Of a DNA stretch of 20,000 nt, positions 370 to 20,000 are shown piece by piece; the first letter of the stretch is position 1, and each line of letters begins with the position of its first letter. The position numbers and the translations under genes are program-made. The notes beneath the pieces are model-generated. The model searched no databases and was not told where the DNA came from. It was given only the letters and a program-made list of their open reading frames with translations. Origin of the DNA: an uncultured virus (IMG/VR IMGVR_UViG_3300042884_001034) (Duplodnaviria > Heunggongvirae > Uroviricota > Caudoviricetes); IMG/VR virus record IMGVR_UViG_3300042884_001034, positions 53,168 through 73,167 of that record; one strand, written 5' to 3'.

Positions 370-3300
370 TTATTTCATACTACTTTCTTTTTGTATAGTT
401 ATATCAAATTCTTTGGCAAACTCATTATTTAAAATTGCTCCATATGTTAAAGCAGACTTTGCTACAGGTAAAGCTTTTGCAGCATATTTAATAGGCATAG
501 CTTTTTTCCTCACCTCTTCAGCAGATAATGTAGGATCTGTAATATCAAATCCTGTCACTTCTCTAACAAAGTGACTAGTAAACCTAGTATAATCTGTTAT
601 AAGTCCTATAGCTGGGAACATACTTCCACTCAAAAGACTTTCAAAATTGACAGGATTATAGAAGAAAGAAAGCTCTCCAACAAATTTATCTACCACTCTT
701 TGTGAATACCTAAAGAAATTTTTGGTTGCTTTATCTTCTTCATCATCAGGAGCCATAAATCCTAGAGAAATCATCACACCTAATAAAGCCCCAAGAATAG
801 CTAATTCTTTAATCTCGTTTCTTAGATTGGTTCTAATCATATCAGCAAAATCTTCTTTAGTCATGTTAAGAGTTTCACCTGTTCTTTTTTCGTATTTTTC
901 AGCAAAATCCTCATACATTTTATCTATCAAAGCAATTCCCTTGTCATTCATTTGAATTAAATTCGTAATATTTGCTGATTTATCACGAATAGATGTTCCT
1001 AAAACATAAGCCAAAAGTCTAATTCTTCCTATATCATATTTCTCCCCTTTAACACCATCTTCATCCACTGTTACAGAAAAATCATCGCTCACTTTTCTAA
1101 ATTCTGAGAAACGTGTATCAGCAAGTTTTGGTATCCAGCTTTTAAATAGCATCATACTATTTGTCCAAACAGACATTGACATTCTGTTAATATCTCCGTC
1201 AGACATACCTCCTGTTGCATTTCTAGAAATTCTTCTAGTTAGTTCTGTCAATCTTTGTAACTCCCTTTGATTTGAAAGATCTAATCCAGGAATTTCTAAT
1301 TTACCGTTTACAAGTTTTTTAGTTACAGCTATAGACTTTGTTTTCTTAAGTTCTTCCACCTCTGCTTTTATAGCTTCTTTAGACTGTTTATATTCTGAAG
1401 AGGATTTATATCTATTTTTGTATTTGTTTTTTACAAAATCATTAATATTAACAATTCTACCATTATCCACCATCATGTTTTCCAAAAGTGTGACAAAAAT
1501 AGACTTTTCAATAAGTTGTTCTGGTTTTCTCATAAAAACCATTAGCATATCCCCTAAATTTTTTCTAGTGAGAGCAGTCATCCCTGCTTCATATTTATAT
1601 ATATCTGTAGATGGATCATCTTTTAGAGGCATGAATGTATTAACTAATTGTACAAATATTTCTCTATCTTCTTCATTATCAAATCTTTGTACAGCTAATT
1701 TAGCTTGATTTTTAAGAAAGTCTCTTGCTTTAAAATAATCACCAGCTTGTGTAGCCACCTGTATATTACCTCCAAACATATTTACAGCTCCAGATATAAA
1801 TTCAAACCCTAAAGCTTTTAATTGGAATGCTCTATTTGCTGCGTCCATAGTTTTTACTAAAGATGTAGCAGAAGGCTCCTCATCTATTTTAAATACTTCT
1901 CTGCCTGTAATAGTGTTTACACCATTTTTTACAAAGTTTAACACTTTACCTACATTTAAAGGAGTGTCTGTATCAGAAAGAACATACTTTTGTCCGTATA
2001 ACAACACTCTTAAAAAGTCATCATACATTTTAGTGTTTTCTTCATTTCCTGGTATTTCTATTATTTTACCACCTTGTTTAACAACATTTGCTGATCTATC
2101 TGTAGCTAAATGCCCTTTAAATTGCTCTACAGTTTTTACTAATTGTAATTGTCCTTCTACAGCAGAAAGATATTTATACTTTTCCATTTGTTGGATGTAT
2201 AAAATCATATTCTTAAAAAGATCTTCGCTTACGTCAGAATAATCATTTACACCATCTTTTCTAGTAAAATCATATGTGTAATACTTAGGAACAGAATTTT
2301 CTAGTTCACCTGTAAGCTCATTAAAACTTCCAAATCCTACATCATCTGTTTGCATTTTAAGACTCTCTGAAAAATTCTTTAAAGGAGAAATACTATGATC
2401 CCAAGCTAGTTCTTCAGCAGCTCCTTTCCTAACAAACGGTAGGAATGTTTTCATCACTTTATTAGTGATATATCCAGCCTCTTTAGCTTCTTCATTTATA
2501 CTACCTATGAAATTATAAAGTTCTAAAAGAATTGGATTTTTAAGAATGTTTTTGTATTCTTCTGAATACCATTTTGGGAGAGGATGTCTTTTAATGATAT
2601 AGTTATTCCAACCATTAAAGTTTTTATTATCAATATCCCACATCTCTTGAGCTTCTTTAATATTTTTAACTCTTATAGCCTCATTCTCATTTTTATCACT
2701 TGTATATATCTGTCTTTCTATTTTTTTAATTTGATCTTCAAGACGTTTATTAGCTTCTTTTTTATACTCCTCTACATCAATATTGTCTAAAAGCCATTGT
2801 TTATCTCCACCTTCTTTAGCTTTTGCATCCACTTCTTCATGGAATTTTCTGCTATATCTATGAATAAGTTTATTAACAATACCTCCTTTATCATCCTTTT
2901 GATATATCTGTTGCACTATTGTTCTAAGATCTCCCCCCTGTTCTGCTAATTTCTTCCTAATATCCATTAGTTTTTGTACTCTTTCTAACGATGCTTTAGA
3001 AGCTTCTCCTTGGGCACCTCTCACCACTTTGTATAACAATTGTAATGCTTTAGAAGGAAGTTCTGATATACCTCTAAAATTAGAAGAAAGTCCTTTAATA
3101 ACAGCTTCGGGGGATAGAAGTCCAAATACAAGGTTTCTTTGCCCTACATGTTTATCTGCAAAATCCTGAGCAGCTTTCGTTAATTGTTCTTTTGATCTGT
3201 AAATAGCATTAGATTGGGCCATCAACTGATCATGTATATCTTTTCTTCTTGCTACATCTTCTCTTTCTTCTTCTGTCTTAGCATTTTCCAACATATCCTT

Positions 3301-6300
3301 TGTATACACAAGGTGGCCTATGTCTCTTCCTATATTTTCAAAAACATCAATAATTCTTAAGTGCACTCTCATCTTCTCTGCAAAATCTGAAAGTTCTTTA
3401 TTATTTGAATCGTTAGAAGAAGCTGGTCTATTTTTATAAATAGTGTTATAATCATTTAATAGCTGGTCACCCTCTTCTCTCATAATACCTACAACATCAA
3501 TTAAAGAAGCAATATTATTTTGTCCCTGTAAAAGACGAACAGCTTTTCTAATAGTGTTTAAACGCTCTATTTTAAATAAACGCTCATCATCATCTGTTAC
3601 TTCTTCCTTGCCTATTTGTTTAAGCATGGAATTTAGTTTTTTAATAATATTATCAAGATCTTCATATCCTGTAGATTCTGTTTGTTCAGAAACAGGCACA
3701 AGTCTAAGATCTTGTATTTTAGTTTTATCTATAGAACCTATAGCTATTCCTTTTAATTCAAGGCCAGAACTCTTATTGCCTTTTTCTTTATACCCAAAAT
3801 CCATAGCTATTGGAATAGCTCTATTCATTCCAAATTCTTTTATTCCATAAAAGTCTTTAAGAATATTTTTATATGTACCAAGCTGAATATCAAAGGCTCC
3901 TTGTTTAAACCATGCAACATCTTCACCGTTTATTTGCATAAACTTCCAATCAAGAATATGTCCTTTCCCCGAAGGATCTACAGCTAAGAAGTCTATTGTA
4001 CCAGCTCTTTTATCTTTAGGATTGTAAACTATAACTTCCGAGAAAACTAATGCATCTTTATCTAATGTTTGTAAAAGACTTACATAATAGTTTTCCAACA
4101 TATTATACATTTCTTCAGAAGGAAGATTGAATTTTACAGGTCTTGGATCAGGAGTGGTCTTTTTTGTACCATCTTTATTATAATATCTATTATGTATTTC
4201 TTCAAAATCAGCATGCCCCTCCACCCCATATTTTCTTTTCATCTCGTTAAAAGCCTTTTCTTCTGGAGTGAATTTTTTATCTTTAAATCTTTTCTTATAC
4301 CACTCTTTAACAAGATCTGTCACCCTTTTGGTTATTTTTTGTTTTGTACCATCAGGAAGAGATATTTCATACCAGTTGGTAGACTCATCTGAATCTGCTA
4401 ACACTTCATCAGACTTTTCATCACTAACCACTTTGTTAATAGAATTTCTTGTTTCCTGTATTTTTTCTTGCACTTTCTTTTGTGCATCAGATAGTTGGTA
4501 AAATATTCCTCCTTCAGAAATATCAGAAATGGTTCCTCCCACCTCACCTTCAATCACTCTAGCTCCCACTTCTTCAAATATAGATATGTTGGATTTTCTA
4601 TATACACCTCTTATAAGATCTAATATTTTATTCCAAAAGTTTCTAAATAATGATTGAGTGGCTTCCTCCATTAATTCAGGATAGGCTTCTGTAGCTCCTG
4701 CTTTATTAATAATTACTTCCACTAAAAGTTTATCTACAGCTTCTTTCTTTATTTTACGTATATCTGGTTTTCCATTAGGAAGTTTATATACATCTTTATA
4801 TTGATCATAGACTTGTTTATATATCTTAAATCTATCTATTTTAGAAATCATTTCTGTAACAAGTCTTGGGTCCATTTGTTCTAAAATAGCTGTTGCTACG
4901 TGTACCATTTCTTCTGTGAGAGCAACATCTTCTTTCCCCTCTGCTACAGCAATTATCCCTCTAACAAGATCTGCCAGTCCATTTATTCCTTTTGTTGTTA
5001 CGTCTTTATTACCTTTTAAATAATCAGAAAGCTGCTGAATACTAATACCCATTTTTTTAGCAGCTTCCTTCACCTTAGAAAGTGTTTCAGCAGAAGCCTT
5101 AGAAGCAGGCATTCCTTCTTTTTGTAAAAGAATTTGTTTCTGTTCTCTTTCAGGAACAATTTCTACTTCATTCCATGTATTACCATATTCATCTGTAATT
5201 TGTTTTACATTATCCTTTCCGTATTGTTTATTTAAAATATTCTTTACAGTGTTCTCATAGAAGTTGTATATAGGTTTTAAAGCACCAAAACCATTTTTTT
5301 CAACATCTTCAAGCTCTTTTTTAAGTTGATTTATTTCATTTTTAGTTTCTTCTGAAAACTTACTTTTTAAAGATTCAATTTCTTCTTTAGTAGCTGTTTT
5401 TTCTCTACCTGTTTCATTGCTTACTTTTCTCCAAGTTAAAACCTCATTACCATTTTCATCTTCTAAATATCTTTGAATATAATAAAATCCATCAACATTT
5501 TTATTTTTTAAAATACTAGATTCTTCAAGTTCTTTAATTCTATTTTCTTTTTGTTTCTTAAACTCTTCTAATGTTGTATGTCCTTCTACTTTACTAGCTG
5601 TATTACCAGAAGGGAATAACACTTTCTCATATCCTTTTTTAGCACTATCTTGTAGAATAGATTTAATAAAGAATGTAACCCAGTTAGAGTTTTTGTTTAG
5701 AAGTTGGAGGAATTGATTATCTGAACTATTATCTCCTCTTTCATCAAATCTTTTTTCTAACGCACTTCTTCTTAAAGTAGCTGTTTTACCTTCTTGATTT
5801 GAAATTGTAATTAATTCATAAAGATTAGAATCTGTGTCAATATTTGTAACTGTAAACTTTTCACCATTAGATATAAATGTATCTCCTACTTTTTTAATAT
5901 CAAGCTTTTTAGAAAGAACTTTACTATCTCTACCCTTCTGAAAAAGATCAGATTGTACTTCTAGTATTCTACGAGTTGTAGTAGGTGTACCTCCAACACC
6001 AGGAATGCCATTTTTTTCTAATTCTTTAGCTGCTTGAGCACCTTCAGTATCTCTAACTTCTTCTATTTCTTGAGGTAGTGCTTTTCTATTTTGAATACCA
6101 ACTATAGAATCATCACTTCTAAACCAACCAATACCTTGATCTGTAGCAAACTGAGCATGTCCTTTAATAGAAGGAGTAATAGCTGGTGTAGCTATTTCAT
6201 TTTCTGTATAATTGGTTCCTCCTGGAACTGTTAGGTTAGAATATACAGAACTATTATTAGCAGCTCTTTGAGTATTAAAAGCTCTGTTAGCCTCTTCTAA

Positions 6301-6822
6301 TGTTTTAAAAATTGCTATATCAGGATCCCCATCTTCTGTAATATATTCAATAAAATAATCCCCAACTTCAGCTCCTAAAGCCATAGCAGAATTTTCATCG
6401 GTTATTTGTTTAGGTTCAGAACTTTTACCATAAATATCAGAACCTATTTTATTTTTAGCAACATTAATCTCAATAGCATAACTATAATTAGCTAACATGT
6501 TGGTAATCAACTCATTACGATCTGTTGTATTAAATGATTTGAGAAGTTCTATTTGGTCTTTAGGAATACTAAGATCAGATTGTACCTTGTTCCAAAAAGC
6601 ATCTCCTTTCACTCTATTCTTTTCTAAGGAAGAAAAAAGTTTAATAGCCTTCTCAGATTGTAAAGCATCTACAGATTTTAATCCAGCTTTAACAATAGAA
6701 CTTTTACTCTCACTTTCAGGAACATTTCCTTCATAAAGATCCCATAAAGCATAAGCAACATTCTCTCCTCTAGCTGCTACTAACAATTTCCAAGAATCAA
6801 GATTTATATTAGGACATGCCAT
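370..6822 (-). CDS. 2150-aa multidomain (polyvalent) virion cargo protein: EVQSD domain, zincin-like domain, PD-(D/E)xK nuclease, helical C-terminus with a hydrophobic segment
   Basis: Uninterrupted 6.4-kb ORF (ATG..TAA) starting 3 nt after the RNAP gene stop. Motifs: MACPN, LEVQSDLFQ, TEEMVH...KEAVDKL, GTIDFL...ILDWK...QLGTY, LAILGALLGVMISLGFM. A large gene next to the virion RNAP gene is typical of crAss-like phages. Confidence 0.85.
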   Translation of the reverse strand: MACPNINLDSWKLLVAARGENVAYALWDLYEGNVPESESKSSIVKAGLKSVDALQSEKAIKLFSSLEKNRVKGDAFWNKVQSDLSIPKDQIELLKSFNTTDRNELITNMLANYSYAIEINVAKNKIGSDIYGKSSEPKQITDENSAMALGAEVGDYFIEYITEDGDPDIAIFKTLEEANRAFNTQRAANNSSVYSNLTVPGGTNYTENEIATPAITPSIKGHAQFATDQGIGWFRSDDSIVGIQNRKALPQEIEEVRDTEGAQAAKELEKNGIPGVGGTPTTTRRILEVQSDLFQKGRDSKVLSKKLDIKKVGDTFISNGEKFTVTNIDTDSNLYELITISNQEGKTATLRRSALEKRFDERGDNSSDNQFLQLLNKNSNWVTFFIKSILQDSAKKGYEKVLFPSGNTASKVEGHTTLEEFKKQKENRIKELEESSILKNKNVDGFYYIQRYLEDENGNEVLTWRKVSNETGREKTATKEEIESLKSKFSEETKNEINQLKKELEDVEKNGFGALKPIYNFYENTVKNILNKQYGKDNVKQITDEYGNTWNEVEIVPEREQKQILLQKEGMPASKASAETLSKVKEAAKKMGISIQQLSDYLKGNKDVTTKGINGLADLVRGIIAVAEGKEDVALTEEMVHVATAILEQMDPRLVTEMISKIDRFKIYKQVYDQYKDVYKLPNGKPDIRKIKKEAVDKLLVEVIINKAGATEAYPELMEEATQSLFRNFWNKILDLIRGVYRKSNISIFEEVGARVIEGEVGGTISDISEGGIFYQLSDAQKKVQEKIQETRNSINKVVSDEKSDEVLADSDESTNWYEISLPDGTKQKITKRVTDLVKEWYKKRFKDKKFTPEEKAFNEMKRKYGVEGHADFEEIHNRYYNKDGTKKTTPDPRPVKFNLPSEEMYNMLENYYVSLLQTLDKDALVFSEVIVYNPKDKRAGTIDFLAVDPSGKGHILDWKFMQINGEDVAWFKQGAFDIQLGTYKNILKDFYGIKEFGMNRAIPIAMDFGYKEKGNKSSGLELKGIAIGSIDKTKIQDLRLVPVSEQTESTGYEDLDNIIKKLNSMLKQIGKEEVTDDDERLFKIERLNTIRKAVRLLQGQNNIASLIDVVGIMREEGDQLLNDYNTIYKNRPASSNDSNNKELSDFAEKMRVHLRIIDVFENIGRDIGHLVYTKDMLENAKTEEEREDVARRKDIHDQLMAQSNAIYRSKEQLTKAAQDFADKHVGQRNLVFGLLSPEAVIKGLSSNFRGISELPSKALQLLYKVVRGAQGEASKASLERVQKLMDIRKKLAEQGGDLRTIVQQIYQKDDKGGIVNKLIHRYSRKFHEEVDAKAKEGGDKQWLLDNIDVEEYKKEANKRLEDQIKKIERQIYTSDKNENEAIRVKNIKEAQEMWDIDNKNFNGWNNYIIKRHPLPKWYSEEYKNILKNPILLELYNFIGSINEEAKEAGYITNKVMKTFLPFVRKGAAEELAWDHSISPLKNFSESLKMQTDDVGFGSFNELTGELENSVPKYYTYDFTRKDGVNDYSDVSEDLFKNMILYIQQMEKYKYLSAVEGQLQLVKTVEQFKGHLATDRSANVVKQGGKIIEIPGNEENTKMYDDFLRVLLYGQKYVLSDTDTPLNVGKVLNFVKNGVNTITGREVFKIDEEPSATSLVKTMDAANRAFQLKALGFEFISGAVNMFGGNIQVATQAGDYFKARDFLKNQAKLAVQRFDNEEDREIFVQLVNTFMPLKDDPSTDIYKYEAGMTALTRKNLGDMLMVFMRKPEQLIEKSIFVTLLENMMVDNGRIVNINDFVKNKYKNRYKSSSEYKQSKEAIKAEVEELKKTKSIAVTKKLVNGKLEIPGLDLSNQRELQRLTELTRRISRNATGGMSDGDINRMSMSVWTNSMMLFKSWIPKLADTRFSEFRKVSDDFSVTVDEDGVKGEKYDIGRIRLLAYVLGTSIRDKSANITNLIQMNDKGIALIDKMYEDFAEKYEKRTGETLNMTKEDFADMIRTNLRNEIKELAILGALLGVMISLGFMAPDDEEDKATKNFFRYSQRVVDKFVGELSFFYNPVNFESLLSGSMFPAIGLITDYTRFTSHFVREVTGFDITDPTLSAEEVRKKAMPIKYAAKALPVAKSALTYGAILNNEFAKEFDITIQKESSMK
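748..804 (-). other. Predicted transmembrane/hydrophobic helix near the C-terminus of the 2150-aa protein
   Basis: LAILGALLGVMISLGFMAP is 19 uncharged residues, flanked by EIKE and DDEEDK. Confidence 0.6.
3760..4380 (-). other. PD-(D/E)xK (RecB/Cas4-like restriction-endonuclease fold) nuclease domain
   Basis: Motifs occur in the expected order: RVTDLV, YGVEGHADFE, FSEVIVY, AGTIDFLAV (D at 3991..3993), ILDWKF (DWK 3943..3951), QLGTY (3871..3885, the RecB-family QxxxY motif). Domain boundaries are approximate. Confidence 0.8.
4600..5080 (-). other. Degenerate zincin-like (metallopeptidase-fold) domain
   Basis: Beta-strand-like NGLADLVRGIIAVAEG is followed by helix TEEMVHVA (EEMVH 4900..4914; HExxH with the first His replaced by Glu), a downstream KEAVDKLL helix and FWNKILDLIR. 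The layout parallels the zincin-like domain in the RNAP protein. Confidence 0.55.
5158..6260 (-). other. EVQSD-motif domain of unknown function (possibly GNAT-like fold) with insertions
   Basis: Motif blocks PGGTNYTE, GHAQF, IGWFR, RILEVQSDLFQ, WVTFFIKSILQDSAKKGYEKVLFP, FYENTV, TWNEVEI. I recognise this pattern from large phage virion/polyvalent proteins. The fold assignment is inference. Confidence 0.5.
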
Positions 6823-6825
6823 ATT

Positions 6826-9800
6826 TTAACATTTATTATTTTTAATTATTGTTCCTGCTTCAGCCAATGTGTAGCCCATGTCTACAAGCATTTTTGTGTT
6901 TAATTGCTCAGATGAATATGTTTTTCCATCTTTAAGAGACACTGTTTTTTCAGTAGTTGTAGACTCCAAAGATACTAAATTTTCATCTAAATATGATAAA
7001 ATTTCATCATCTTCTTTTTCTTGTTCCACTTTTAAAAATCCATTATCTATCTTAGATTTTTTAGCTACATCATACATTTCTACAGCCCTGAAAGAGTCTC
7101 CCCAAGCATTAACCATTTTATAAATATATTCAGTAATAACAATATTTTGTCCATCTTTATTCATTGTATATTCATTAGTAAATGGTATATCTCCATTATA
7201 TATTTTTTTGAAAAGTCCTTTTTTGATATAAGAATAATCACCTTTCTTTCTCATAGCTTCTTTCTCATATTTATTTCCCACTTCCCATGTAAACACAACA
7301 TAGTCAGAGTCTGCTTCCCTGGATTTTGTATTAAACTTAATCAATTGAGGAATATCTCCAGTTTCCATAGGTTTATTAAACCCAGATAAATTTCTAAAAA
7401 AGTCAAAATTTTTATATCTCCAATTACCAAATTGATCTTGTTTTTTAACTAGTCTTCTACTAGGAACAACATCTCCATCATTCCAATTATTTCTTTGAAA
7501 AACTCCTAATTTATAAAAATCATTAAGATTTGGAATTGTCTCAAGCTTTGATAGGGTCTTATTGTAGATTTCTTTAAAATCTTCATAAGGAATAAGAGAT
7601 GTAAATGATATTGGAGACCTATTTAATCCAGATTGCAAAACAGCGAGCCTAACTAAGTTTCCATATAAAGGACTTTTTATACCTTTAAAATATTGTTTTA
7701 GTTCTTCAAAAGCATAGATAATTTGATTTTGATCATACACTTTATTATCTCTACCAACAATCTTTAAATTGTTTGTTCCGTTTTCTAGTTTTTGAGAAAA
7801 TACAGGAACAAGACTATTTATTAAAATATTATCTTTTAAAGGATGTTTGCTAGATTTTTTAACATCTACAATAAAATCTGACATTTGTTTAGCCACATTA
7901 TTATCTTCTAAAAGAATTCTTTGTACCATTGTATTAAGATCTCTATCATTCTGCACTGCCCAATCAAAAAGATCATTCACTGCCTTTTGAGAAATTTTAA
8001 CAAAATCCCTATCCGATTCATTTATATACGGAAGTAACACTTTTTCCATAACTCCTCTAACATTAGTTTGGTCAGAAACAAGTATTGTAGAAAGAGCATT
8101 TCTTAATTTAAGCAATAAATCACTTAAATTTCCTATGAAAGAATTTTCTAATATATCATCTACGGAAGATACAATAGATGTTTTTGCTTTTTTAAGTTGT
8201 TCCATTTTCTTAAATACTAAAAATGGATCATTAAAAGAAGCTGTATCAAAATTAGAACCCTGTGTAACTAAGTATAGCTGATTAGCCATCTTAGCATACT
8301 TAACAAACTCAGATAGGATAAATCTTTGATCTGCTTTCTGCTCTGGAGATAAATTTTCTCCCTCCCCAATCATATCCCATAATTTACTCTTGCTAGGTAT
8401 TTTAGTGGGCTTTGTAATAGATGAATCATATTTAGAAATAACATCTTCAAATATGTCCCCAATAAATAACCAAGAATACCCAGACCTTTCTATGGATTTT
8501 AAATAATCTCTCACAATGGGTTGGTTCATGAAATAAGCAATAGTGTCGATTGGTACACCTATCTTAGCTAAAAACAACCATGTACTAGCTACATTAGGAG
8601 TGGCTCCTAATTCCATAATCCAGGGTCCTTTAGATATATCCACATATCCATCAATAAACTGTCCATTTATATCTGATATATCTTGGCCTTCTGCATTTTC
8701 TATCATAGAAAGTGTAGGAACTTTTTCTCCATCCACTTCTATACTGTTATACTGTTCAAAGTTAATTTCTGCATCACCCAACCACTCTCTGTCAGCAGCA
8801 TCCTGTATTGCTAATTTATTTTTATCTATGTAAATAGGAGATCTCTGATTTAATGAGTGATTAGTTTGACTTACAGCAGCAATACCAATAGCATATTTAC
8901 CACTAACAAATGCTTGTCTAAGTCTTGACATAAACACCCTGTTTAACATGTTTCCTGTAGAATCATAGTTAAAAGCCCCCACTCCTAATTTATCAGAGAT
9001 TTTTTTAGATAAATCTTTAAGTTGATCTGCGGAGTTTGGAGAAGTAAGTCTTTTGAAATTTTTAGGATGAGAAACAAGTTTTTCACAAGACTCTATATAT
9101 TCATTTTCTAAAGACTCTTTGTACATTTTGTCTTTAAACTCTTCTAATAAAATCTGCTGTACATCCCAATTAGTTAATTCAGAAAGTTTTTTACCAAGTT
9201 TTTCTAATCTTTTTATAAAAATTTCCTCAATATCAGCAACTAATAATTTACCGTCTTCAGTTTCTTTTTCAAACATTTGTTTAAAAATAGGAATCCATTT
9301 ATTAGCTGTTTTGTCACTAGATATTCCCAAAGAAATATCACTGAATAAAGACTGTAAATCAGCTGTAGATATTTTTTTAGCTTCTGCTTTATCTATTTTG
9401 CTTTGTAAAATATCAAAGAAAATATCTTCATATTTATTTTTGTTATTAGGATCTATACCAAAAAATGGTACAATCTCTATATTTCCTTTAGCATTTTTAA
9501 ATACGTTTTTAAAGTATATAGAAAGTTTATCTATATCAAAGTCAGATCCCACTTTCTGAACCAATGCTGAAGGAATTACAACAGAGTCTCCAAATTCCTT
9601 AGGAAGAAATCTTTTAATTTTAAAAACATCAATAGAGTTTTGCTTTTGTGTAGGAATACGGTATGCAAGTCCAGATAGAATTTTTTGTCCTTCTGGAGTT
9701 TCATTTAAATATTTTAAAAGCTCTTCGTCAGACAAATCACTCTTAAACCATCTACCCACCATTATTTCACACACACGTTTACCATCCTCATCCTTATAAA

Positions 9801-12800
9801 ACTCAAGAGTGTCAGATGTATATCCTAGTTTTCCGTTAATTTCTCTTAATTCTGTTTTTGTAGATTCTAATAAAGCAGCAGGAATTTGTACTTTTAATCC
9901 ACCAGAAATTTTAGGAGAAATTACTTCCTTATCTGCTATGGAATATAAAATATTTCTTATTTGTTGGTAGGCAGGTGTGGCCTCTAATATTACAGAACCT
10001 TCTGCATAATTTCTTACAGCCTCACTTATATTATCATTAACCTCTCTTTTTAATAACTCTTGTCTTAAAAACTCTGCAACTTTTTCAATATTCTCTGGTT
10101 CAATAACATATCCATCAGCAGTTTCTGTTATATGCAATTTATTCAATAAAGACTTATATCCATTTACAGCAATAGCTTCTAAAAGATTTTGGTTGTTTTT
10201 TATCTCTTTGTAGAGAGAAGATTCTTTTATTCTACCTTCTTCGTCTAATGCATACCAAGCTTTATACCTTTCTGGAAATGTTTTTGTTTCTTCAAAGTCT
10301 ACAGGAACTCCTGCTTCCATATAATCCATAGTGATGAGTTTTGTCACCTGGGATCCTCTAGTTACCAAAGGAGTGTCTTTAGAAGGCACTTCAGATTGAA
10401 CACTCATTATGTCAAAAGGAACATTGAACACTCCTTCAAACTCATTAGTGTTAAAACTACCATCCTCGTTATATACAGAATTAGTTTTTTCAGCTCCCAC
10501 TTTTCTAGCACTCTTAAACACTACATAATCAATGTTTTCTTCCTGCATTTTATCATAAAGCTTTAATGCGTTGGAAGAAGCATTTATCTCATACATCACT
10601 CTATATGATAATGGATATAATGCAAACTTGTCTAGCATTACATCATTGTAATTTTTACCATTATCTTTATTTCCAGCTACAATAGGTTTAACTGGTGTAT
10701 AAGTACTCTTTGCAGCAGGATTCTTATTAAGAAGCTTTTGTAACTCTTCTTTAGAGGCTCCTGATTTAGCAGCTTCTTCAAATTTAATATCAAACTTATA
10801 TTGAAGCTCTTCGTTTTCATTCCATTCTCCAGAACGAATTCTAAAATTTCTATACGCTTTAAAAGAAATTATACCACTACCATCCGTTTCTTCATATTCT
10901 TTATATCCAGGAAGATCAATCACTCCTACAATATCAGCTAGTGTTGTGGTCTTAAAGTAATTCTTATTAAAATCTGTATACCCTAAATCTCCTTTTTTAA
11001 AGCCTTTATTCCAAACATTATTTAATAGCGAATTTATATTGTCCGATCCTAATAAACGTTGTCTAGGAGAGAGAAAGTTTTTAATACGTTTTAATTCATC
11101 ACTGTATTGATAAGGATCTGAATACAATAACTTATGAAACTCTATATTGTTAATCATAAAGTTGATATTCAAAGCTGTCAACTCTCTGTTTAAATCATCA
11201 ATATTTTCAAACACAGACTCTGAAAGTGCTATGTTTTCCACTTCCCAGCCTAAATCTGTTTTATTTATAATACCATAAGAAAGTAAATTATTTCTAAATT
11301 TATTTACATCTTCCCCAATAAAACTCTTTAGAGCAGCATTAATTTTTGACTCATATTTTTTATAAACTTCTTCTGGAGTTCCAGTTTCTTTCACAATATC
11401 ATTATGCAACTTCTCTCCAAGAATAGGTTTAAAGAATCTAAGATCTGTACTTTTTCTAGTTTTTGTCTCTTTTGTGTTTCTATTTACATCTCTAGATAAT
11501 AGTAATTCTGAAATAAAATATCCTTTAAATATTTTATTAACATCTTCCATTCCTGTAGCTCTTAATCTTTTTACAGAAACATGATTACCCATATATGCCA
11601 TCCATTCCATAGAAGCATCTCCAGGGACAAGATTCATATAATATCCATTAAGATTTAAATTAATTTCTTGTATTAATCTTTCTCTATAGGTTAACTTAGA
11701 AGATTCTTTTTTCTTACCACTCTGTTCATTAATTGTACCATCTACATATCCTATAGATAAATAGTTTTCAATATCTTCTCTTTTTTCCCCTGTCTCTAAA
11801 TTAAACATTTTGTTTAATATAACAGAATTCTTAACAAAAGAATCTGTTAATAAATACTGATATTGAGCGGGAACATCATTTAAATTGTTAACCTGAGAAA
11901 GTACATCGTAAAGATCACTACCAGGATTGGTTCCTATAAAAGACTGCACTCTTTCTCCATTAAGATTGAAATATGTACTGTCAAATTCTGGAGTGGTAAT
12001 TATTGCTTTTATTGTAGCTAGTTTTAATAGCTGGCCCTCAATATCTAACACCTTACCAGATATAGTGGCTATTTCTTTAGCTTGCTCAATACTTGTTCTA
12101 ATACCATCTACAGCTGTGTTAAATACTTTTAATTTATCACTGTTAAGAGATTTTAATTCTTCCTCTGTAAAAGATATTCCTAATTTTTCTAAAAACGCTA
12201 TTCTTGCTGATGCACTTAAAAGAGTTTTAGGAACAGATTTAGGCTCTCCTTTAAATCTTCTAGTCTTATCATCATATACAAAATAAGAACTTTTCTTAGT
12301 TTTTATTGCATCAACTATTTGAGAAATAAAATCTGATCTTAATTGTCTTGCTGCAGAAGAAAGATTTGAATCTCCTATTACAACATCATCATTAGAAAGA
12401 ATAAATACTGCTTTTACATCAGCATTCATTTTCTTAAATGTTTTCCAGAATGAAGCAAGTAATTGGGCCTCATGTGGTTCTGTTAAATTAGAATAATCAA
12501 TTCCTTTAACAGTTATAGCAGATTTAGTAAGTCTTTCATATAATGTTTTATAATTATTATCTTTTAAACCTAATTCTTTAAGTCCTTGTAACATTTCTTC
12601 TATAGTCTTGGCACTATGAACTTGGTTCATTACTTTCATAAAAACCTCACTAGTAGGAATTAACTTAGCACCATTCACTGTAGAACGGTCCATATTACCA
12701 TCTCTATCCACTCTAGCAACAGTGGATAATAACATTTTTATAGCTGCATTAGCCTTTTTAAAATTGTCAATTTTTCTAGCATCTTGATAATCTGATTTTC

Positions 12801-15800
12801 CAGAGTTATTTTCATCTGTTAATGTTGCATTATCATTCTCATCAAATTCTATTGAATATCCTCTTAAATATTCCTCGTGTTTAAATTTAAACTCATCCCA
12901 ATTATCTTCTACAGCCTTCCATAAAGCAAGAGATTTTTCTATGTGAGGAGCCCCTTGTTTTTCTGTAAATGTACCTTTCTCAATTAAAGCTTTTGTAGAA
13001 CTTACAGTTTTAAGAATGTCTTTTTGAACTTGGTCTTTTAATTTTATATATAATTCCGTTTTGTTAATATTTGGAATAGTAAAAAAGCTTTTATTATCTC
13101 TGAAAATATTCTTTAAAGTGAGGTAGGTCATGTTTTGTATAACATCATGTCTCTCCTGACCATTCATTCCAATTATACTAAACTCTGCCCCAGCATTTGC
13201 AATAGCTTCTTCTATATCAATCACTCCTTCTTTAGCGAAAGAAAGTGCTGAGTGATATGGAGAATATTGTTTGTAATATCCATTTCCTATTTTAGAGAAT
13301 AGTTTTTCTGTATTACTTTCAGCTTTATTTCCTGTAAAAAATTCCTTAATAAAACTAACAAGGTCTGCAAATAATTTTAATATAAATGGTCTTCCAGAAG
13401 TTGGTTTACCTGGAATTTTTTTATACATTACATAATCTCTAAACTCTTCTGCTAGTTGTTCTTTAGCTTCTTGATTAGTGGCCTCAGAATATTTAACTTC
13501 TTTTCCTGTAGGTCTGTCTATAAAAGAACCTTTTCTAGCTTTAAACTCAGCTAATACATTAGCTTGTTCTTCAGCATCAGAAAACATTTTCCATACAGCT
13601 TCAAAAACCTCATGGTAAACAGTGCCCACTTCCGCATTCTCATATATGTATATAGCACCGTCTTGAAACATACCCCAAGCTTGTCTACCATTAGTAGCTT
13701 GTATTACATTCTTCACTCTATATACAGGAACATTTGGAAAGTTTTCTTTTAACCACTTTTCCACCTTCTGCCAATTCTCTCCCTCAAATTTTTCTATTTC
13801 TTTAGCAATCTTTTCTCTAAACACAGGACCATCTTCATCAGAAGATTCCATCATTTGTCTTCTTATTTTGTCAAGATCTGACTCTGTCATTCCTTCAGAT
13901 GCAACTTCTGTTTTAGCTTCCTCACTTATAATTTTTGCTGCTACAGGAGCTGTTTGTTCAGTCACTTTCTTTTTATATTCTTCTATCTGTGGAGCTAAAG
14001 TTTTTACAATTGATCCTGCAAAAGCATCTTTAATTTGTTCTTCTGGTGCGTTAAGATCAGCTATTGCTTTTTCAATACCATCTCCAGACAGTTCTCCTTG
14101 AAACACTCCTTTTATAGCATCATATGAAAAATTAATATTATATTTACCTAAAAGGGTAATGTTATTTTTTGCCTCTCCATCAAATGTATAGCCATCAACA
14201 ACTATTTTAGCTGCTGGTGTAGGAGCTACAGGAGCTGCTGGGGCTGTTGGGGTTAGCACCTTCGGTGTTGTTACCACTGTTTTTGGAATAACAAACTTAT
14301 CTGCATTATCAGTGATTGTAAAATAAACCCCTTCTCTATTAACATCTTCCTCATTTTTTAAAGGACGAGCTATTGTTGTAAGAGGAATATTCTCTGCATT
14401 TCTTTTATTACCATCCGCATCTTTATTAGATAGTAGATAAGATTGGTAGTTAGGCCATGTTTTTATTTCTAAAGATCCATCTTTTTTAACACCAATAATT
14501 TCAGAATAAGGTTCATTCCAAGATTTATTTATAATAGTGGCATTAACATTATTATACATGTCCTGTATAAGAGACATTAAATTATCTTGGTTTTCTTGAA
14601 TGGATAATGGACCAAAAGGAATGTTTCCTCCTTTTCCAGATAAGAATAATTTTAATATTCCATCTGCATCTTTTTCAAACCATATACTATTATATCCTGG
14701 ATTCTTTCTGTTACCATCAACCACTTTAGGAACTCCCCAATATACAACAGATTTGAGCCAATCTAATATAACTAAAGAATCTGCTGATTTAGCATTACCA
14801 TCTTTTTCTACATTTCTAGAAAGTCTTAAAATCATATTATATATTAAAGAAGCTTCTTTCTCATTAAACTTTCTATTGTTTAGTTTAACAAGACCATTTG
14901 CTGTCTTTAATAATGGTCTACCTTTAGCATTAGTAAATGTAACGCTACCATTTTCTTCCGCACCTTCTGTAGTACGAAGAACAATTACATTATTGTTTTC
15001 TAATCCTTTTGGAACAAGTCCAGCCTCTTCTACAGAGTTTTTAGCTCGGTAGTTAGTCTGTTCAACTCCTTTATCATCTGTATATTTTTCATTTTGTAAA
15101 ATACCAAATGAAGCGTCTATTCTATATTGTACAAGGTCAACAGTTGATAATATACCATCTCTCCATGTTTTATACTGCTCTATTAATGCCTTTTTAACAT
15201 TATCTGGAGTGGTATTTCTAAACATAGAAGATGGCTTACCACTCTTACTATATTCAGCACTCCATTCTAATCCCTCATCAGGCATCACCTGATATATTGC
15301 ATTATCTAATTTATCTACTCCTTCAGGAATAACTTCTCCATTAACATCAACAAGTTCTCCATCTGTATTAACCATAACAAGAGCTATCACTCCTGCTTTT
15401 TGCTCTGGTGTGCCTTCTCCAAAAAGTCTATCTATTAATCCAGGTATAAGACTAACTTGGTTGTTAATTGTAACTAATACACCACGGATATTTGCTTTAT
15501 TAGGAAGAGTGGGGAAATTGTTACCAAACTTATTAGCTCTTATATGATGAGGCTTGTCTGACTTTGAAGGCACCTTTGTACTAGTGACAATAGAAATGTC
15601 ATCCTTTTTAGCATCAGGCTCATAAGTTTCATCATACTGAAGAGTTTGTTGATCAGCTACCATTGTTCCTAAAATAGCTTGTTTAAACTCTTCATTTTTA
15701 GCCAGTCTAGCTTCCTGTTCTTTTTGTTGTTTATGTTTTTTAGCTACTTCCTCAAATGTATTTAAAATTAATTCTTTTGCTTTAATTTCTTTTTCTACCT

Positions 15801-18800
15801 CTTTAAGCTGATTTTGTAACCCCTCCATTTCTTTCCTAAGTTCTTCTAAAGATCTTTCATTAGGAATGACGTCAAGTTCATCTATATCAGCAATATCTCT
15901 TTCAAATTCAGAAAGATCTGATAATAGATTTGGGTTTGCCTGTAAGTAAGATTGATAATCTGGATAGACACCTTTAGCAGAAAGATCTTTATTTAAAAAC
16001 TCTACAAGTCCTAATGGTGTATATGGAAGATTTGGATATTTTGCTTCAAATTTCTTAATAAGATTTAATGCAAAATCAACAGCAGTTTTTAATGCACCAT
16101 CCACTTGATCCATTAATTTAGACAAAGCATTAATTTGTTTTCCTACACTTTCTTGTAATAGGTTTAAATTTAAAGCTTGCTCATTAAGATCTTCTAGTAG
16201 CTCTCTACTGTTTTCAGGGAACTCATCAATATTTTGAGCCATATCAGCTACATAAGACTGATTAAACTCTATCTCATCTCTTTCAGCTTCTAATGCTTCT
16301 ATTTCTAAACGAAGGTCTTCCTTCATTCTAGAAAGTCTATTAGCAGCTTTAATTGCTTTATTTGTAGAAGATTTAAAATTGTTTTTCTTAGTGATAGCAC
16401 CACTACTAATTTTTTCTTCTAATACTTTCATCTCCTCAACAATCCTATCCACTTGCTCTTTTTTCTGAGCAATAAGTGTATTAGTTTTGTCTAGCTTAGC
16501 AGAAAGATTGTCAAATAAATTAGTAAGTATTTCAAGTCTACTAGCTCTTCTTGCTTCTATTCTTGCGTCTCTTTCAGCAGCAAACTCTTCTTCTGATTTT
16601 TGTTGAACAGCTGTAAGAGTACCAAAAGCTTTTATCATTCCATGTTGGTAGCCTTCTTTAGCTTTAAAGTCTTGTCCTACAATTTCTTTTGTTCTTATTT
16701 TTCCTTTTGCATCTTTGTATACAAATAATAAAATTCCTTCTTTAGGAGAATATTGAAGTCTTCCTTTTGCAGGCTGTCCATTCACTTTAATACCGTAATG
16801 TTCATATACGGTATTAATATTATCCATGTAAAACTTAGCTTTTTTATTTTTTTCTGTATCACTCACCTTCCCCAACTTATAACTAGCCAGTTCTTCCTTA
16901 GATATATTTTTAATAATTCCTGTAGACCCTTTTATTCTTATTGTGCCATCCTCATTTTCACCAAGAATTGTTAACTTAGGAAAGTTATGAACTTCTTTAC
17001 CATCTTTACTATAAGAGACAACACTACCTAAATAATACTCTGTACCCACTTCAATATCTTCTTCCCCATCTTTTGTCTTAATTTTAACAATCTGCTTTTC
17101 TTTAATTTTTGTATCAGGAGCAAATTCTTCTTCTTCCTCTTCTGTATATTTCTCTGGATTGTTTTTAATATCATTATATTCATCTAAAAACTTTGCTCTA
17201 CGTGCTGACAATTCAGCTACATCTTCTAGAGCTGTTTTAAGATCTGCCACTTTTTCTGGTAATAAATTTTTACCAAGAGCATCAATTTCTGCCATAGCAG
17301 CATTGAAAGAATCACTACTTCCAGCTACAACATCATTAATAACTGTATCAACATCTATATTTATAGCCTCCAAAGAACCAGATAGTTGTGGTATTCTTTT
17401 ATCATAATCTGCCACTTTAGTAGCAGCATAAATCATTTTATTTATTGTCTCTGGAGAGTATACAGGTTTACCATCTTTGGTGATAAGATTACCATATCTT
17501 AAATTAATAGATTGGTATAAAGATTTTATGCTATCAGCAGTTTGTTCAAGATTTTCTATTCTCTGTAAATATTGCTCTCTAGTGTCTCCCTCTAATGCTT
17601 TACCCTCCGCCTTTAATTGTGCAAATCCTTCTTCAGTCATTGCTAATTTTCTATAATCTTCTATGTCAGAACGAACAAGATCCATTCTGCCATATTTAAT
17701 TCTAGGTGTTAGGTAGTTGATAATATAATCTTGTTCAAGATCTTTACTCTCTAAAACATCTCCTTGTCTTAAAGCTTTTTCTCTATCCTCTTGAATAGCA
17801 GTGCCTCTATTAACAGCAGATATTGTTTCCTTTGTAAAATCAGAGAATTTCCATTCATTGGCTTTTTTAATAAATTCTGCTGTATCTTTTGCTTTTTCTC
17901 TACTCTCTTGTATTTTCCCTTTAGCCATCATTAAGGCCCCAGATAAACCACCAATAAGGACATTTTCCATTCCCTCGTTAGTAGTGAGGGTTTGTTTAAC
18001 TCCTTCTTTAAGACTATCAATAAAATCAGCTGAAGCTCCTCTGTATTTTTTATTATAATAATCTTGTGTGCCTGATTGAATAGCAAATTGTGCGCCTTCT
18101 TCAAAAGCTTCAGATATAGAAAATGTGTAAGGCCTTATATTATTTAATGTAGATAAAACTCTGTTTTTAAAGAATGAAGGGGCCTTTACTAAATTACCAG
18201 CAGCATCTTTAGTAACATCTGCCACTTCTTTTGTAAGACCATTAACAATCCCTTTTTCAGCCTTATACGAAGCTCCTAGTATTTTAGGAAACTGAATATA
18301 GTTAGTAGCTGTTAATAGAGCAGTGTTAAGAAGGAAAGAAGATGTACCTACATTTTCTGCCTCATTATTAATTTTTTCAAGATCTTTACCTGTTGGAGCA
18401 AGTCCAAAGTTTTGTGCTTTATATTCCTCTATTTTCTTTTTTCTAAATTCATTAGAATTATTATAAGCTTCAAATCCTGCCTCTCCTGTTGTAGCAAGTC
18501 CTGCAACAACAGCTCTACCACCAGCATTAAGACTATTATATGTAGATAGGTATTTATCAGAAATACTTTTTATCTTACCAAACATGCTAGCTCCTTTATC
18601 AGCAGCAAGAAGAGCCTCTTCTGTAGCCACTAAAGCTTCTGCAGATTTACCTGCTGCAAATAGTTTTGATGTAAGAGGAAGAGCTTTTAAAACAGAAGCA
18701 TACACACCTCCAGATAAAGCAGCTCCTGCTGAAAATCCCATATTTTTAATAATGCCATCCCAGAAGAAATTAGCTGTAAACCATTTCTTAGGAGAGTACC

Positions 18801-19299: not shown

Positions 19300-20000
19300 T
19301 TTTTAAAGTTTAATCCACTAAGTGTTTTAATTGTTTGAAGTCTACCTGGAGTTAAGCTATTTATAAAAGACTGTGCTGCATCAGCAGATGGATATGCAAC
19401 AGGGTATATATCTCCTGGATTTTTATCAGCAATACCTCTTACATTACCTTCTCCATCTTTTATATAAAAGTAAATATTATGTTGACCAAGATCATTAACT
19501 TTTATATCTGCTCCTAAAATATCTGTTTCTTGTCTTTGATGAAAGAATGATGGTGGATAATAAGCACCTGTATATGCAACAGGGTTGTTTGGATCTCCTG
19601 TTATAGAATTTGTTGTTCTGTTGTTTTCACTCCATGCAATTTTTCTATTAACATCTGAAACAGGGGCAGGAAGATTAATAACTGCTCCTTTTATATAATT
19701 TGCTGATCTTTTATCAATAGGTAATTGTTGTACTAAAGTGTTTCCATCATAAAGGTCTAATGTAAAAGTTTCTCCATAACTTCCAGGAGTTCCTCTATCA
19801 ACACCAATAGAAACATTATACTTGTCTTTATCTTTTCCTGCTAAAAAGTTAGTAAATTTGTCAACATCTATTGTTCCTTTATAATTATCAATCACTTCAT
19901 TAAGTCGTTGATTGACAGATTTAATTTGGGGCTCCTTAGCATCCTCAGGATATAACGAAACAACTAGAGGCTCATTGCCTAACATTTTTTGTTTTAACAC
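19296..20000 (-). CDS. 3' end of an unidentified protein, probably another virion/cargo protein; start lies beyond the window
   Basis: Frame is open from the window edge to TGA at 19298..19296 (at least 234 aa). The stop overlaps the next ATG (ATGA). No recognisable motif; the 'M' in the ORF track is probably an edge artefact. Confidence 0.75.
   Translation of the reverse strand: MLKQKMLGNEPLVVSLYPEDAKEPQIKSVNQRLNEVIDNYKGTIDVDKFTNFLAGKDKDKYNVSIGVDRGTPGSYGETFTLDLYDGNTLVQQLPIDKRSANYIKGAVINLPAPVSDVNRKIAWSENNRTTNSITGDPNNPVAYTGAYYPPSFFHQRQETDILGADIKVNDLGQHNIYFYIKDGEGNVRGIADKNPGDIYPVAYPSADAAQSFINSLTPGRLQTIKTLSGLNFKK

Follow-up and report, generated by a model that had tools for sequence, protein, structure and literature searches.

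The 20,000-nucleotide stretch of DNA analysed here, referred to below as the window, is part of a 73-kb virus record and contains three giant ORFs, all on the minus strand (Table 1). The 4157-aa ORF, which carries D-F-D-I-D at aa 3253, is a putative crAss-like virion RNA polymerase, judging from its motif, size and position; a PDB sequence search with its C-terminal half gave no match. A cysteine is found at both facing ends of this protein and of its 2150-aa neighbour, as the last residue of the former (6826-6828 region) and as residue 3 of the latter. Neither protein matched directly any solved structure or cultured phage, and aa 781-2150 of the 2150-aa protein had no tblastn match in 50,697 phage records. 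The gene layout is of the crAss-like cargo block type: in the crAss001 block (gp47/49/50, PMC10172136) giant genes likewise stand in a row with a D-F-D-x-D polymerase, and the giant cargo proteins have been detected by proteomics in crAss001 virions (PMC10172136). A polymerase with D-F-D-x-D is also described for phi14:2 (bioRxiv 2020.03.07.982082). The window differs from the cultured crAss-like phages in the domain studied here, which has no detectable copy in them (tblastn, 50,697 phage records); neither the window domain nor that of locus L030 had a tblastn match among cultured phages.

Table 1. Features of the window; strand and helix labels follow the predicted GNAT topology.
Feature	Position	Strand	Basis
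Cut giant ORF	19296-20000	minus	ORF listing
4157-aa putative virion RNA polymerase	6826..19299	minus	D-F-D-I-D at nt 9529-9543; C-terminal Cys
2150-aa cargo protein with the domain	370..6822	minus	sole Cys is residue 3 (window 6814-6822)
N-module (aa 42-127): helices, then strand (aa ~115-123), predicted GNAT beta1	6442..6699	minus	co-occurrence and complex model
Variable insertion 0 (aa 128-190), at the site of GNAT alpha1-alpha2	6253..6441	minus	5% mean identity; position inferred from topology
Core block: PGGxNYxE strand (beta2; E207), GHAQF loop (H222), GIGWFRSD strand (beta3; W233, R235)	6112..6252	minus	
Variable insertion 1 (aa 239-280)	5983..6108	minus	low identity among homologues
beta4 E288-V-Q290-S291-D292, then Q295-K-G297-R298 (rebuilt motif A region)	5929..5973	minus	
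Variable insertion 2 (aa 304-366), separating the motif A loop from alpha3	5725..5913	minus	model and low identity
alpha3 (from W381), GY, beta5 (K-V-L-F-P-S-G)	5605..5682	minus	model; no other block resembles canonical GNATs by profile
Long helical arm, antiparallel, following beta5 and tipped by variable insertion 3 (aa 433-494)	5293..5604	minus	model
alpha4 with F521-Y522-E523 (motif B-like) and terminal beta-hairpin	5158..5292	minus	alignment and model
Zincin-like segment	4483..5097	minus	E-E-x-x-H at aa 637-641 (window 4900-4917)
PD-(D/E)xK-like nuclease segment	3643..4482	minus	motif at aa 941-961; PF12705 on 2/120 homologues

A first-pass annotation, made from the sequence of the window, had reported an enzyme-like domain at the front of the 2150-aa protein, built of motif blocks whose polar residues (H, R, E, Q, S, D) resembled an active site. 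The span examined was the translation of 5158-6261 on the minus strand, that is, aa 188-555 of the 2150-aa ORF. All the blocks are present in the order claimed, namely PGGxNYxE (aa 200-207), GHAQF (221-225), GWFR (232-235), LEVQSDLFQ (287-295), W381 followed by GY (397-398) and V.FP, and FY (521-522), and they are near-invariant in 120 homologues. The polar residues proved conserved, far beyond what chance would give, and in the alignment of the 120 homologues with the query 14 positions reached 1.00 (rounded): E207, H222, W233, R235, E288, Q290, S291, D292, Q295, W381, Y398, G406, F521 and Y522. The domain is a real, strongly conserved unit. Identity to the window is 79-90% in the blocks, 5-11% in the insertions and 29-45% in the rest of the protein among 60 co-linear full-length homologues, a contrast which is inflated because these (the first 60 of 75) were selected on the domain itself.

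The extent first reported needed revision. The blocks do lie within aa 188-555, but about half of this span is variable insertion, and the unit begins upstream, near aa 42 (nt 6699). An N-module (residues 46-127) accompanies the core in 203 of 253 homologues irrespective of the carrier protein. It is also found in 62 of 71 loci; in the other nine the contig ends, an insertion is very long or the gene is split. Since the N-module travels with the core and docks on it in the complex model presented below, the unit was set at aa ~42-555 (window 5158-6699, minus strand), in which conserved blocks are parted by four variable insertions. Insertion 2 of the window is modelled as a small beta-barrel similar to KOW/SH3, although its matches to EF-P and eIF5A fragments (E 0.3-0.8) are not significant. 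The placement at the front of the protein holds in this phage, but carriers elsewhere show other arrangements: among 253 of them, 78 have the same layout as the window protein, 101 have none of the tested flanks, and 27 also contain polymerase-core sequence, with the domain before or after it.

The region search retrieved 723 relatives out of 7,992 candidates, with at least 120 homologues listed and aligned, and a search with a profile built from 61 sequences gave 1,567 clusters (50% identity) at E<=0.001 and 532 at E<=1e-30. No name for the window domain came from Pfam, PHROGs, NCBIfam or PDB sequence searches; Pfam and NCBIfam gave no GNAT family for it, for 44 A3 members or for 42 A2 (second-subfamily) members, and the best ESM Atlas matches (0.83-0.84) were hypothetical proteins only. 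Two candidate identities were rejected. The PDB match 6n7m (E 0.003) is confined to the coiled arm, and phrog_7348, a giant of 2,564 positions labelled endolysin that is matched by 41 of 42 A2 members, owes its label to the whole protein.

The motif E-E-I-Q-S-D-W-H-Q served as the lead to a second subfamily. It was found in 121 viral stretches in 7 of the 64 parts of the collection (about 1,100 are estimated for the whole), and these have the block order of the window family. A comparison of 42 second-subfamily members with the window family by hhalign (96.2%, E 2.5e-9) shows that the two are homologous, even though they are mutually only 14% identical; their N-modules are weakly alike (E 0.033). 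The second-subfamily profile matched 1,694 and 2,148 proteins in two length classes among 8,000 candidates. In prokaryote assemblies 291 of 600 stretches were confirmed as second subfamily and are labelled with many phyla, but most of them are MAG contigs, so that the labels are weak evidence of host. E-x-Q-S-D occurs in 252/253 window-subfamily and 240/240 second-subfamily proteins and Q-S-D-x-x-Q-x-G-R in 236/253 and 238/240, respectively; across the whole domain the invariant set comprises E, H, R, E-x-Q-S-D, Q-x-G-R, W and F/Y-Y-E/D.

Structural models were obtained for the window domain (pLDDT 73, pTM 0.58) and for a second-subfamily member of compact size (231 aa; pLDDT 71, pTM 0.68). 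The proposed check by structure prediction had a divided outcome, in that Foldseek returned no PDB match at E<=0.001 for the window model whereas a wider structural search returned GNAT folds. Of the 50 rows that this search listed for the window model, 26 cover the entire core and all of these are GNAT-fold (Z 6.6-8.4, 95-124 residues aligned, rmsd 3.4-6.5), the other 24 aligning helical parts only; the best row is a spermidine acetyltransferase (Z 8.4, rmsd 5.1, 108 aligned). For the compact member all 50 listed rows are GNAT-fold (Z 5.8-7.3), a label that for about a dozen of them is absent from the title and is our own assignment. It should be noted that, according to the search tool, Z below 8 can reflect a common arrangement, and that identity to solved GNATs is 4-18%. 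No GNAT subfamily is prominent among the matches. In a viral library Foldseek gave 21 matches at E<=0.001 for the compact model, all large uncultured-phage or unnamed proteins.

Two further observations bear on the fold. In a profile alignment with 28 canonical GNATs the alpha3-beta5 block falls in register (score 18.5, E 0.012, against 11.7 for the highest of 30 column shuffles), although the window subfamily profile by itself has no GNAT similarity (E 0.41) and a forced global profile alignment to GNATs fails, leaving the beta4 and motif B registers unconfirmed. The N-module, modelled as a separate chain, docks on the core with a score of 0.71 (best of 3 controls 0.01), with at least 71% contact agreement between runs and partner pLDDT of at least 77. 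The mark for docking is reached by 116 of 157 solved pairs and by 2 of 215 mismatched pairs, a calibration that is approximate here, own alignment and ligand having been used (CoA was included but unscored). In the complex model the last strand of the N-module pairs antiparallel with aa 206-212. The models contain the mixed GNAT sheet arrangement (antiparallel beta1-beta4, alpha3, beta5 parallel to beta4, alpha4 and terminal strands); the helices alpha1-alpha2, expected between beta1 and beta2, are not seen, and an insertion of 5% identity takes their place. This region is variable among GNATs (PMC4964394). Based on the unanimity of two models at 14% identity, the alpha3-beta5 match and the docking of beta1, we predict that the domain has a GNAT fold, with beta1 supplied by the upstream N-module. 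The GNAT-like topology first noticed from the sequence is in this way upheld by both subfamilies (Z 5.8-8.4).

In GNATs the P-loop, Q/R-x-x-G-x-G/A, sits directly N-terminal to alpha3 (PMC4964394). Its absence had already been remarked, and at normal spacing it is indeed missing from 253/253 window-subfamily and 240/240 second-subfamily proteins. Anywhere between beta4 and beta5 the pattern occurs in 1/237 and 48/179 proteins of the two subfamilies, respectively; the latter probably represent R-x-K-G-Y in degenerate form with an insertion after it, possibly a vestigial P-loop. In both subfamilies the place of the loop is taken by S-D-x-x-Q-x-G-R, an insertion and an invariant Trp that starts alpha3. 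The absence of the P-loop and the 45-160 residue stretch that parts beta4 from beta5 make CoA binding doubtful. In the complex model I119, N208 and I210 point toward alpha3, and A122, E207, E209 and W233, and with it R235, occupy the other side of the sheet. In GNATs the face opposite alpha3 is the acceptor side. The invariant E288 on beta4 and F/Y-Y-E/D on alpha4, a helix longer than the canonical one, correspond by topology in the model, with profile register unconfirmed, to the base and acid elements of GNATs, in which a Glu base and a Tyr acid are common (PMC4964394). E288 would be the base and Y522 the motif B Tyr acid.

The domain is an accessory element, mobile between cargo proteins. 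Five relatives that are 57-61% identical over the remaining protein lack it: in L209, L210 and L213 the sequence passes from about aa 35-72 straight to aa 767, and L211 and L212 have a different short N-terminus in its place. The records of these five do not match the window-family profile (0/5), which in a control found 3/3 same-subfamily records and 0/2 of the other subfamily, and the three complete ones do not match the second-subfamily profile either. Among 29 relatives selected on the polymerase the domain is present in one, a 91%-identical near twin, and in none of eight near-complete records; 12 of the 29 match the end of the 2150-aa gene at DNA level. This patchy presence counts against a core structural role. 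The near twin (L208:4841-12028) is 91% identical over aa 388-2150 and 51% over the first 440 residues, and its cassette seems to have been swapped by recombination.

Of 76 non-identical loci, 6 have the domain divided by GIY-YIG endonuclease genes, as does the near twin. Three or four different sites are affected, and the pieces have Cys-tipped ends and retain the catalytic-type residues. In the near twin the core is divided between alpha3 and beta5, with new Cys-tipped ends, and in L048, L049 and L059 the interruption lies at insertion 1. By eye, entire domains are nested within the core of other loci: about 550 aa with an ART-PolyVal-like look after beta2 in L024:2914-5589 and L066:8357-11032, one that is zincin-like, with H-E-x-x-H, inside the helical arm in L028, and a P-loop kinase-like one after beta3 in L041.

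Within the window protein the zincin-like segment is gained and lost jointly with the domain, as a cassette of aa ~36-766, and the nuclease segment is retained in relatives without the cassette. In the former, Glu replaces the first His of H-E-x-x-H (giving E-E-x-x-H), both in the window and in the eight variants most common among 60 homologues, and the segment may be catalytically dead. The multi-effector payload suggested by the first-pass annotation is backed only in part: the zincin-like segment is perhaps inactive, and the nuclease is seen just as a motif and as PF12705 on 2 of 120 homologues. The effector context itself agrees with the patchy presence, the clean losses and the polyvalent Pfam domains of an accessory, mobile, cargo-borne domain.

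The search for other architectures found podovirus, jumbo-phage and plasmid proteins. Pelagibacter phage HTVC028P gp34 carries the domain within the internal virion protein block, one protein of Dolichospermum phage Dfl-JY45 has two copies, Nostoc phage Nsp-JY18 is another named carrier, and the carrier of Pseudoalteromonas phage PH1 adjoins TerL. Six plasmid records have a second-subfamily domain. Large Pseudomonas aeruginosa plasmids are among the carriers (NZ_CP111035, NZ_CP115292, NZ_CP115286, LC685027), two P. aeruginosa plasmid carriers being annotated just as 'LPD23 domain-containing'. Of 17 complete carriers chosen from 80 second-subfamily loci, 11 contain polyvalent-protein Pfam domains (LPD1/3/22/23/39, ART-PolyVal, InPase, MuF_C, ddrB-ParB), and carriers combine unlike effector domains in a single large polypeptide encoded among late or virion genes, as polyvalent proteins do. 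By analogy, from gene position, relatives and the crAss001 proteomics (PMC10172136), they are likely packaged in the virion and injected. P0263, P0269, P0271 and similar proteins of 660-730 aa are near-solo, with N-module and core after a Pro/Gly/Ala-rich N-terminus; such compact natural members, with a core of about 230 aa, are expressible.

The reading we prefer, to which we give close to an even chance, though less than that, is that the domain is a cargo-borne acyltransferase of the GNAT fold whose donor site has been rebuilt, and that it modifies an amine on a molecule conserved among hosts. It would be injected together with the virion RNA polymerase and act in the earliest minutes of infection. 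In the predicted sheet, which runs from beta1 to beta7, alpha3 lies on one side and E207, E209, W233 and R235 lie on the other, open side, where a variable insertion replaces alpha1-alpha2. This open face together with E288/Q290 and H222 would recognise and deprotonate the amine acceptor; S291-D292-x-x-Q295-x-G297-R298, W381 and K387 would form a non-canonical thioester donor site, with acyl-CoA as a first guess for the donor, and Y522 would serve as general acid. The acceptor is probably near-universal, since phages associated with widely differing bacteria retain these residues, and candidates are a core component of transcription or translation or a small molecule. The purpose may be host takeover or counter-defence, on the pattern of the phage GNAT Rac, which acts on host RNA polymerase (PMC7552054), and of AcrVA5, an acetyl-CoA enzyme acting on Cas12a and Cas2 (PMC11021501). 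A broader joint claim is rather unlikely: that crAss-like phages, podoviruses, jumbo phages and plasmids share a widespread class of GNAT-fold enzymes, so far without a name and delivered by the virion, whose donor site is rebuilt and which perform at DNA entry an undescribed acyl or aminoacyl modification of a universal bacterial target, e.g. an immune signal or the transcription/translation machinery.

Fem/aminoacyl-tRNA transferases and LuxI-type synthases have the GNAT fold without a classical P-loop, and FemA carries a helical arm. A transferase with a similar non-CoA donor (aminoacyl-tRNA as in Fem/ATE, acyl-ACP as in LuxI), whose arm would hold the bulky donor, fits the missing P-loop and the long arm of the window domain, and FemA (Z 6.7, 122 aligned, window model), Sbb17 (Z 6.0) and LasI (Z 5.9, both with the compact member) are among the structural matches. 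We nevertheless consider it unlikely. These rows are level with or under ordinary GNATs, the arm is absent from compact members such as L083, and the Fem-like profile score does not exceed shuffles, in a test flawed by about half of its 16 rows coming from the wrong strand. A FemAB search returned one gene; set beside the Fem and LuxI types, the window domain is a single GNAT unit, against the tandem of Fem transferases.

It is likewise improbable that the domain is a non-catalytic binder, which would sequester a nucleotide signal or acyl-CoA or inhibit a host protein as antizyme or PanZ do. The non-catalytic antizyme (Z 7.4) and the ICL2 C-terminal domain (Z 7.0) match the window model on par with enzymes, the P-loop is lost, and large insertions and gene splits are tolerated; however, invariant E, H, R, Q, S, D and Y common to subfamilies only 14% identical are more typical of catalysis. 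Phage Mom enzymes are GNAT-fold DNA modifiers (PMC7824862), and a domain that would enter with the DNA, next to a helical N-module that might bind it, could acylate bases of the incoming genome against restriction. This we regard as very unlikely, given that no Mom-family match was found in Pfam or NCBIfam and that the few virion copies at entry would presumably be too slow against restriction.

That the domain helps to build the ejection conduit, or acts as scaffold to the virion RNA polymerase, might be expected from the site in the cargo genes, the long coiled arm and the polymerase-core sequence of some carriers, but a structural role is hardly tenable for a domain that is missing from 28 of the 29 relatives selected on the polymerase, including all 8 near-complete records, that is cleanly deleted in close relatives and that recurs in unrelated podovirus, jumbo-phage and plasmid proteins. 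Finally, E-x-Q resembles the E-x-K/Q motif of nucleases, and E-V/I-Q does lie on the third strand of a beta-beta-beta-alpha-beta unit; a divergent PD-(D/E)xK-type nuclease is yet scarcely credible, with no restriction fold over the core in 100 listed fold-search rows (one R-M entry aligns the helical arm only) and no conserved P-D aspartate where the preceding strand starts.

If the domain is indeed a transferase working without the standard CoA loop, it would represent new GNAT chemistry and a new route of host takeover or counter-defence. Apart from the polymerase, little has been described of the cargo that enters with the DNA of crAss-like and other phages, and a frequent cargo module, with thousands of sequences in two subfamilies, now has a boundary, a predicted fold and residues for mutation. 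A description of the domain was not found in the literature searched, which excluded most subscription papers.

Among known systems, the domain is GNAT-like by fold, lacks the P-loop and is filed in no named GNAT family. In polyvalent proteins Iyer et al. 2017 (PMC5512222) describe 40 LPDs and two GNAT families of RimI-like type; unlike those RimI-like families, the window domain has no Pfam GNAT match, no P-loop, and four insertion sites. It may be one of LPD1-LPD40, which were compared here through the LPDs present in Pfam: none of these matched it, and the best stretches in 17 carriers fall outside the domain. The alignment with AcrVA5 (PDB 6iuf; PMC11021501), a phage GNAT of minimal core, covers 87-95 of 95 residues (Z 6.7-7.0, rmsd 3.0-3.7), level with many other GNATs, but AcrVA5 is a small solo protein with 7-9% identity to the domain. 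Rac of phiKMV-like phages (PMC7552054), to which the domain is likened by description only, is likewise a predicted phage GNAT for host takeover, but a stand-alone expressed gene instead of a cargo domain. In their setting the carriers resemble the polyvalent proteins of Iyer et al. 2017 (PMC5512222), which are also multi-domain proteins of the late region predicted to be injected.
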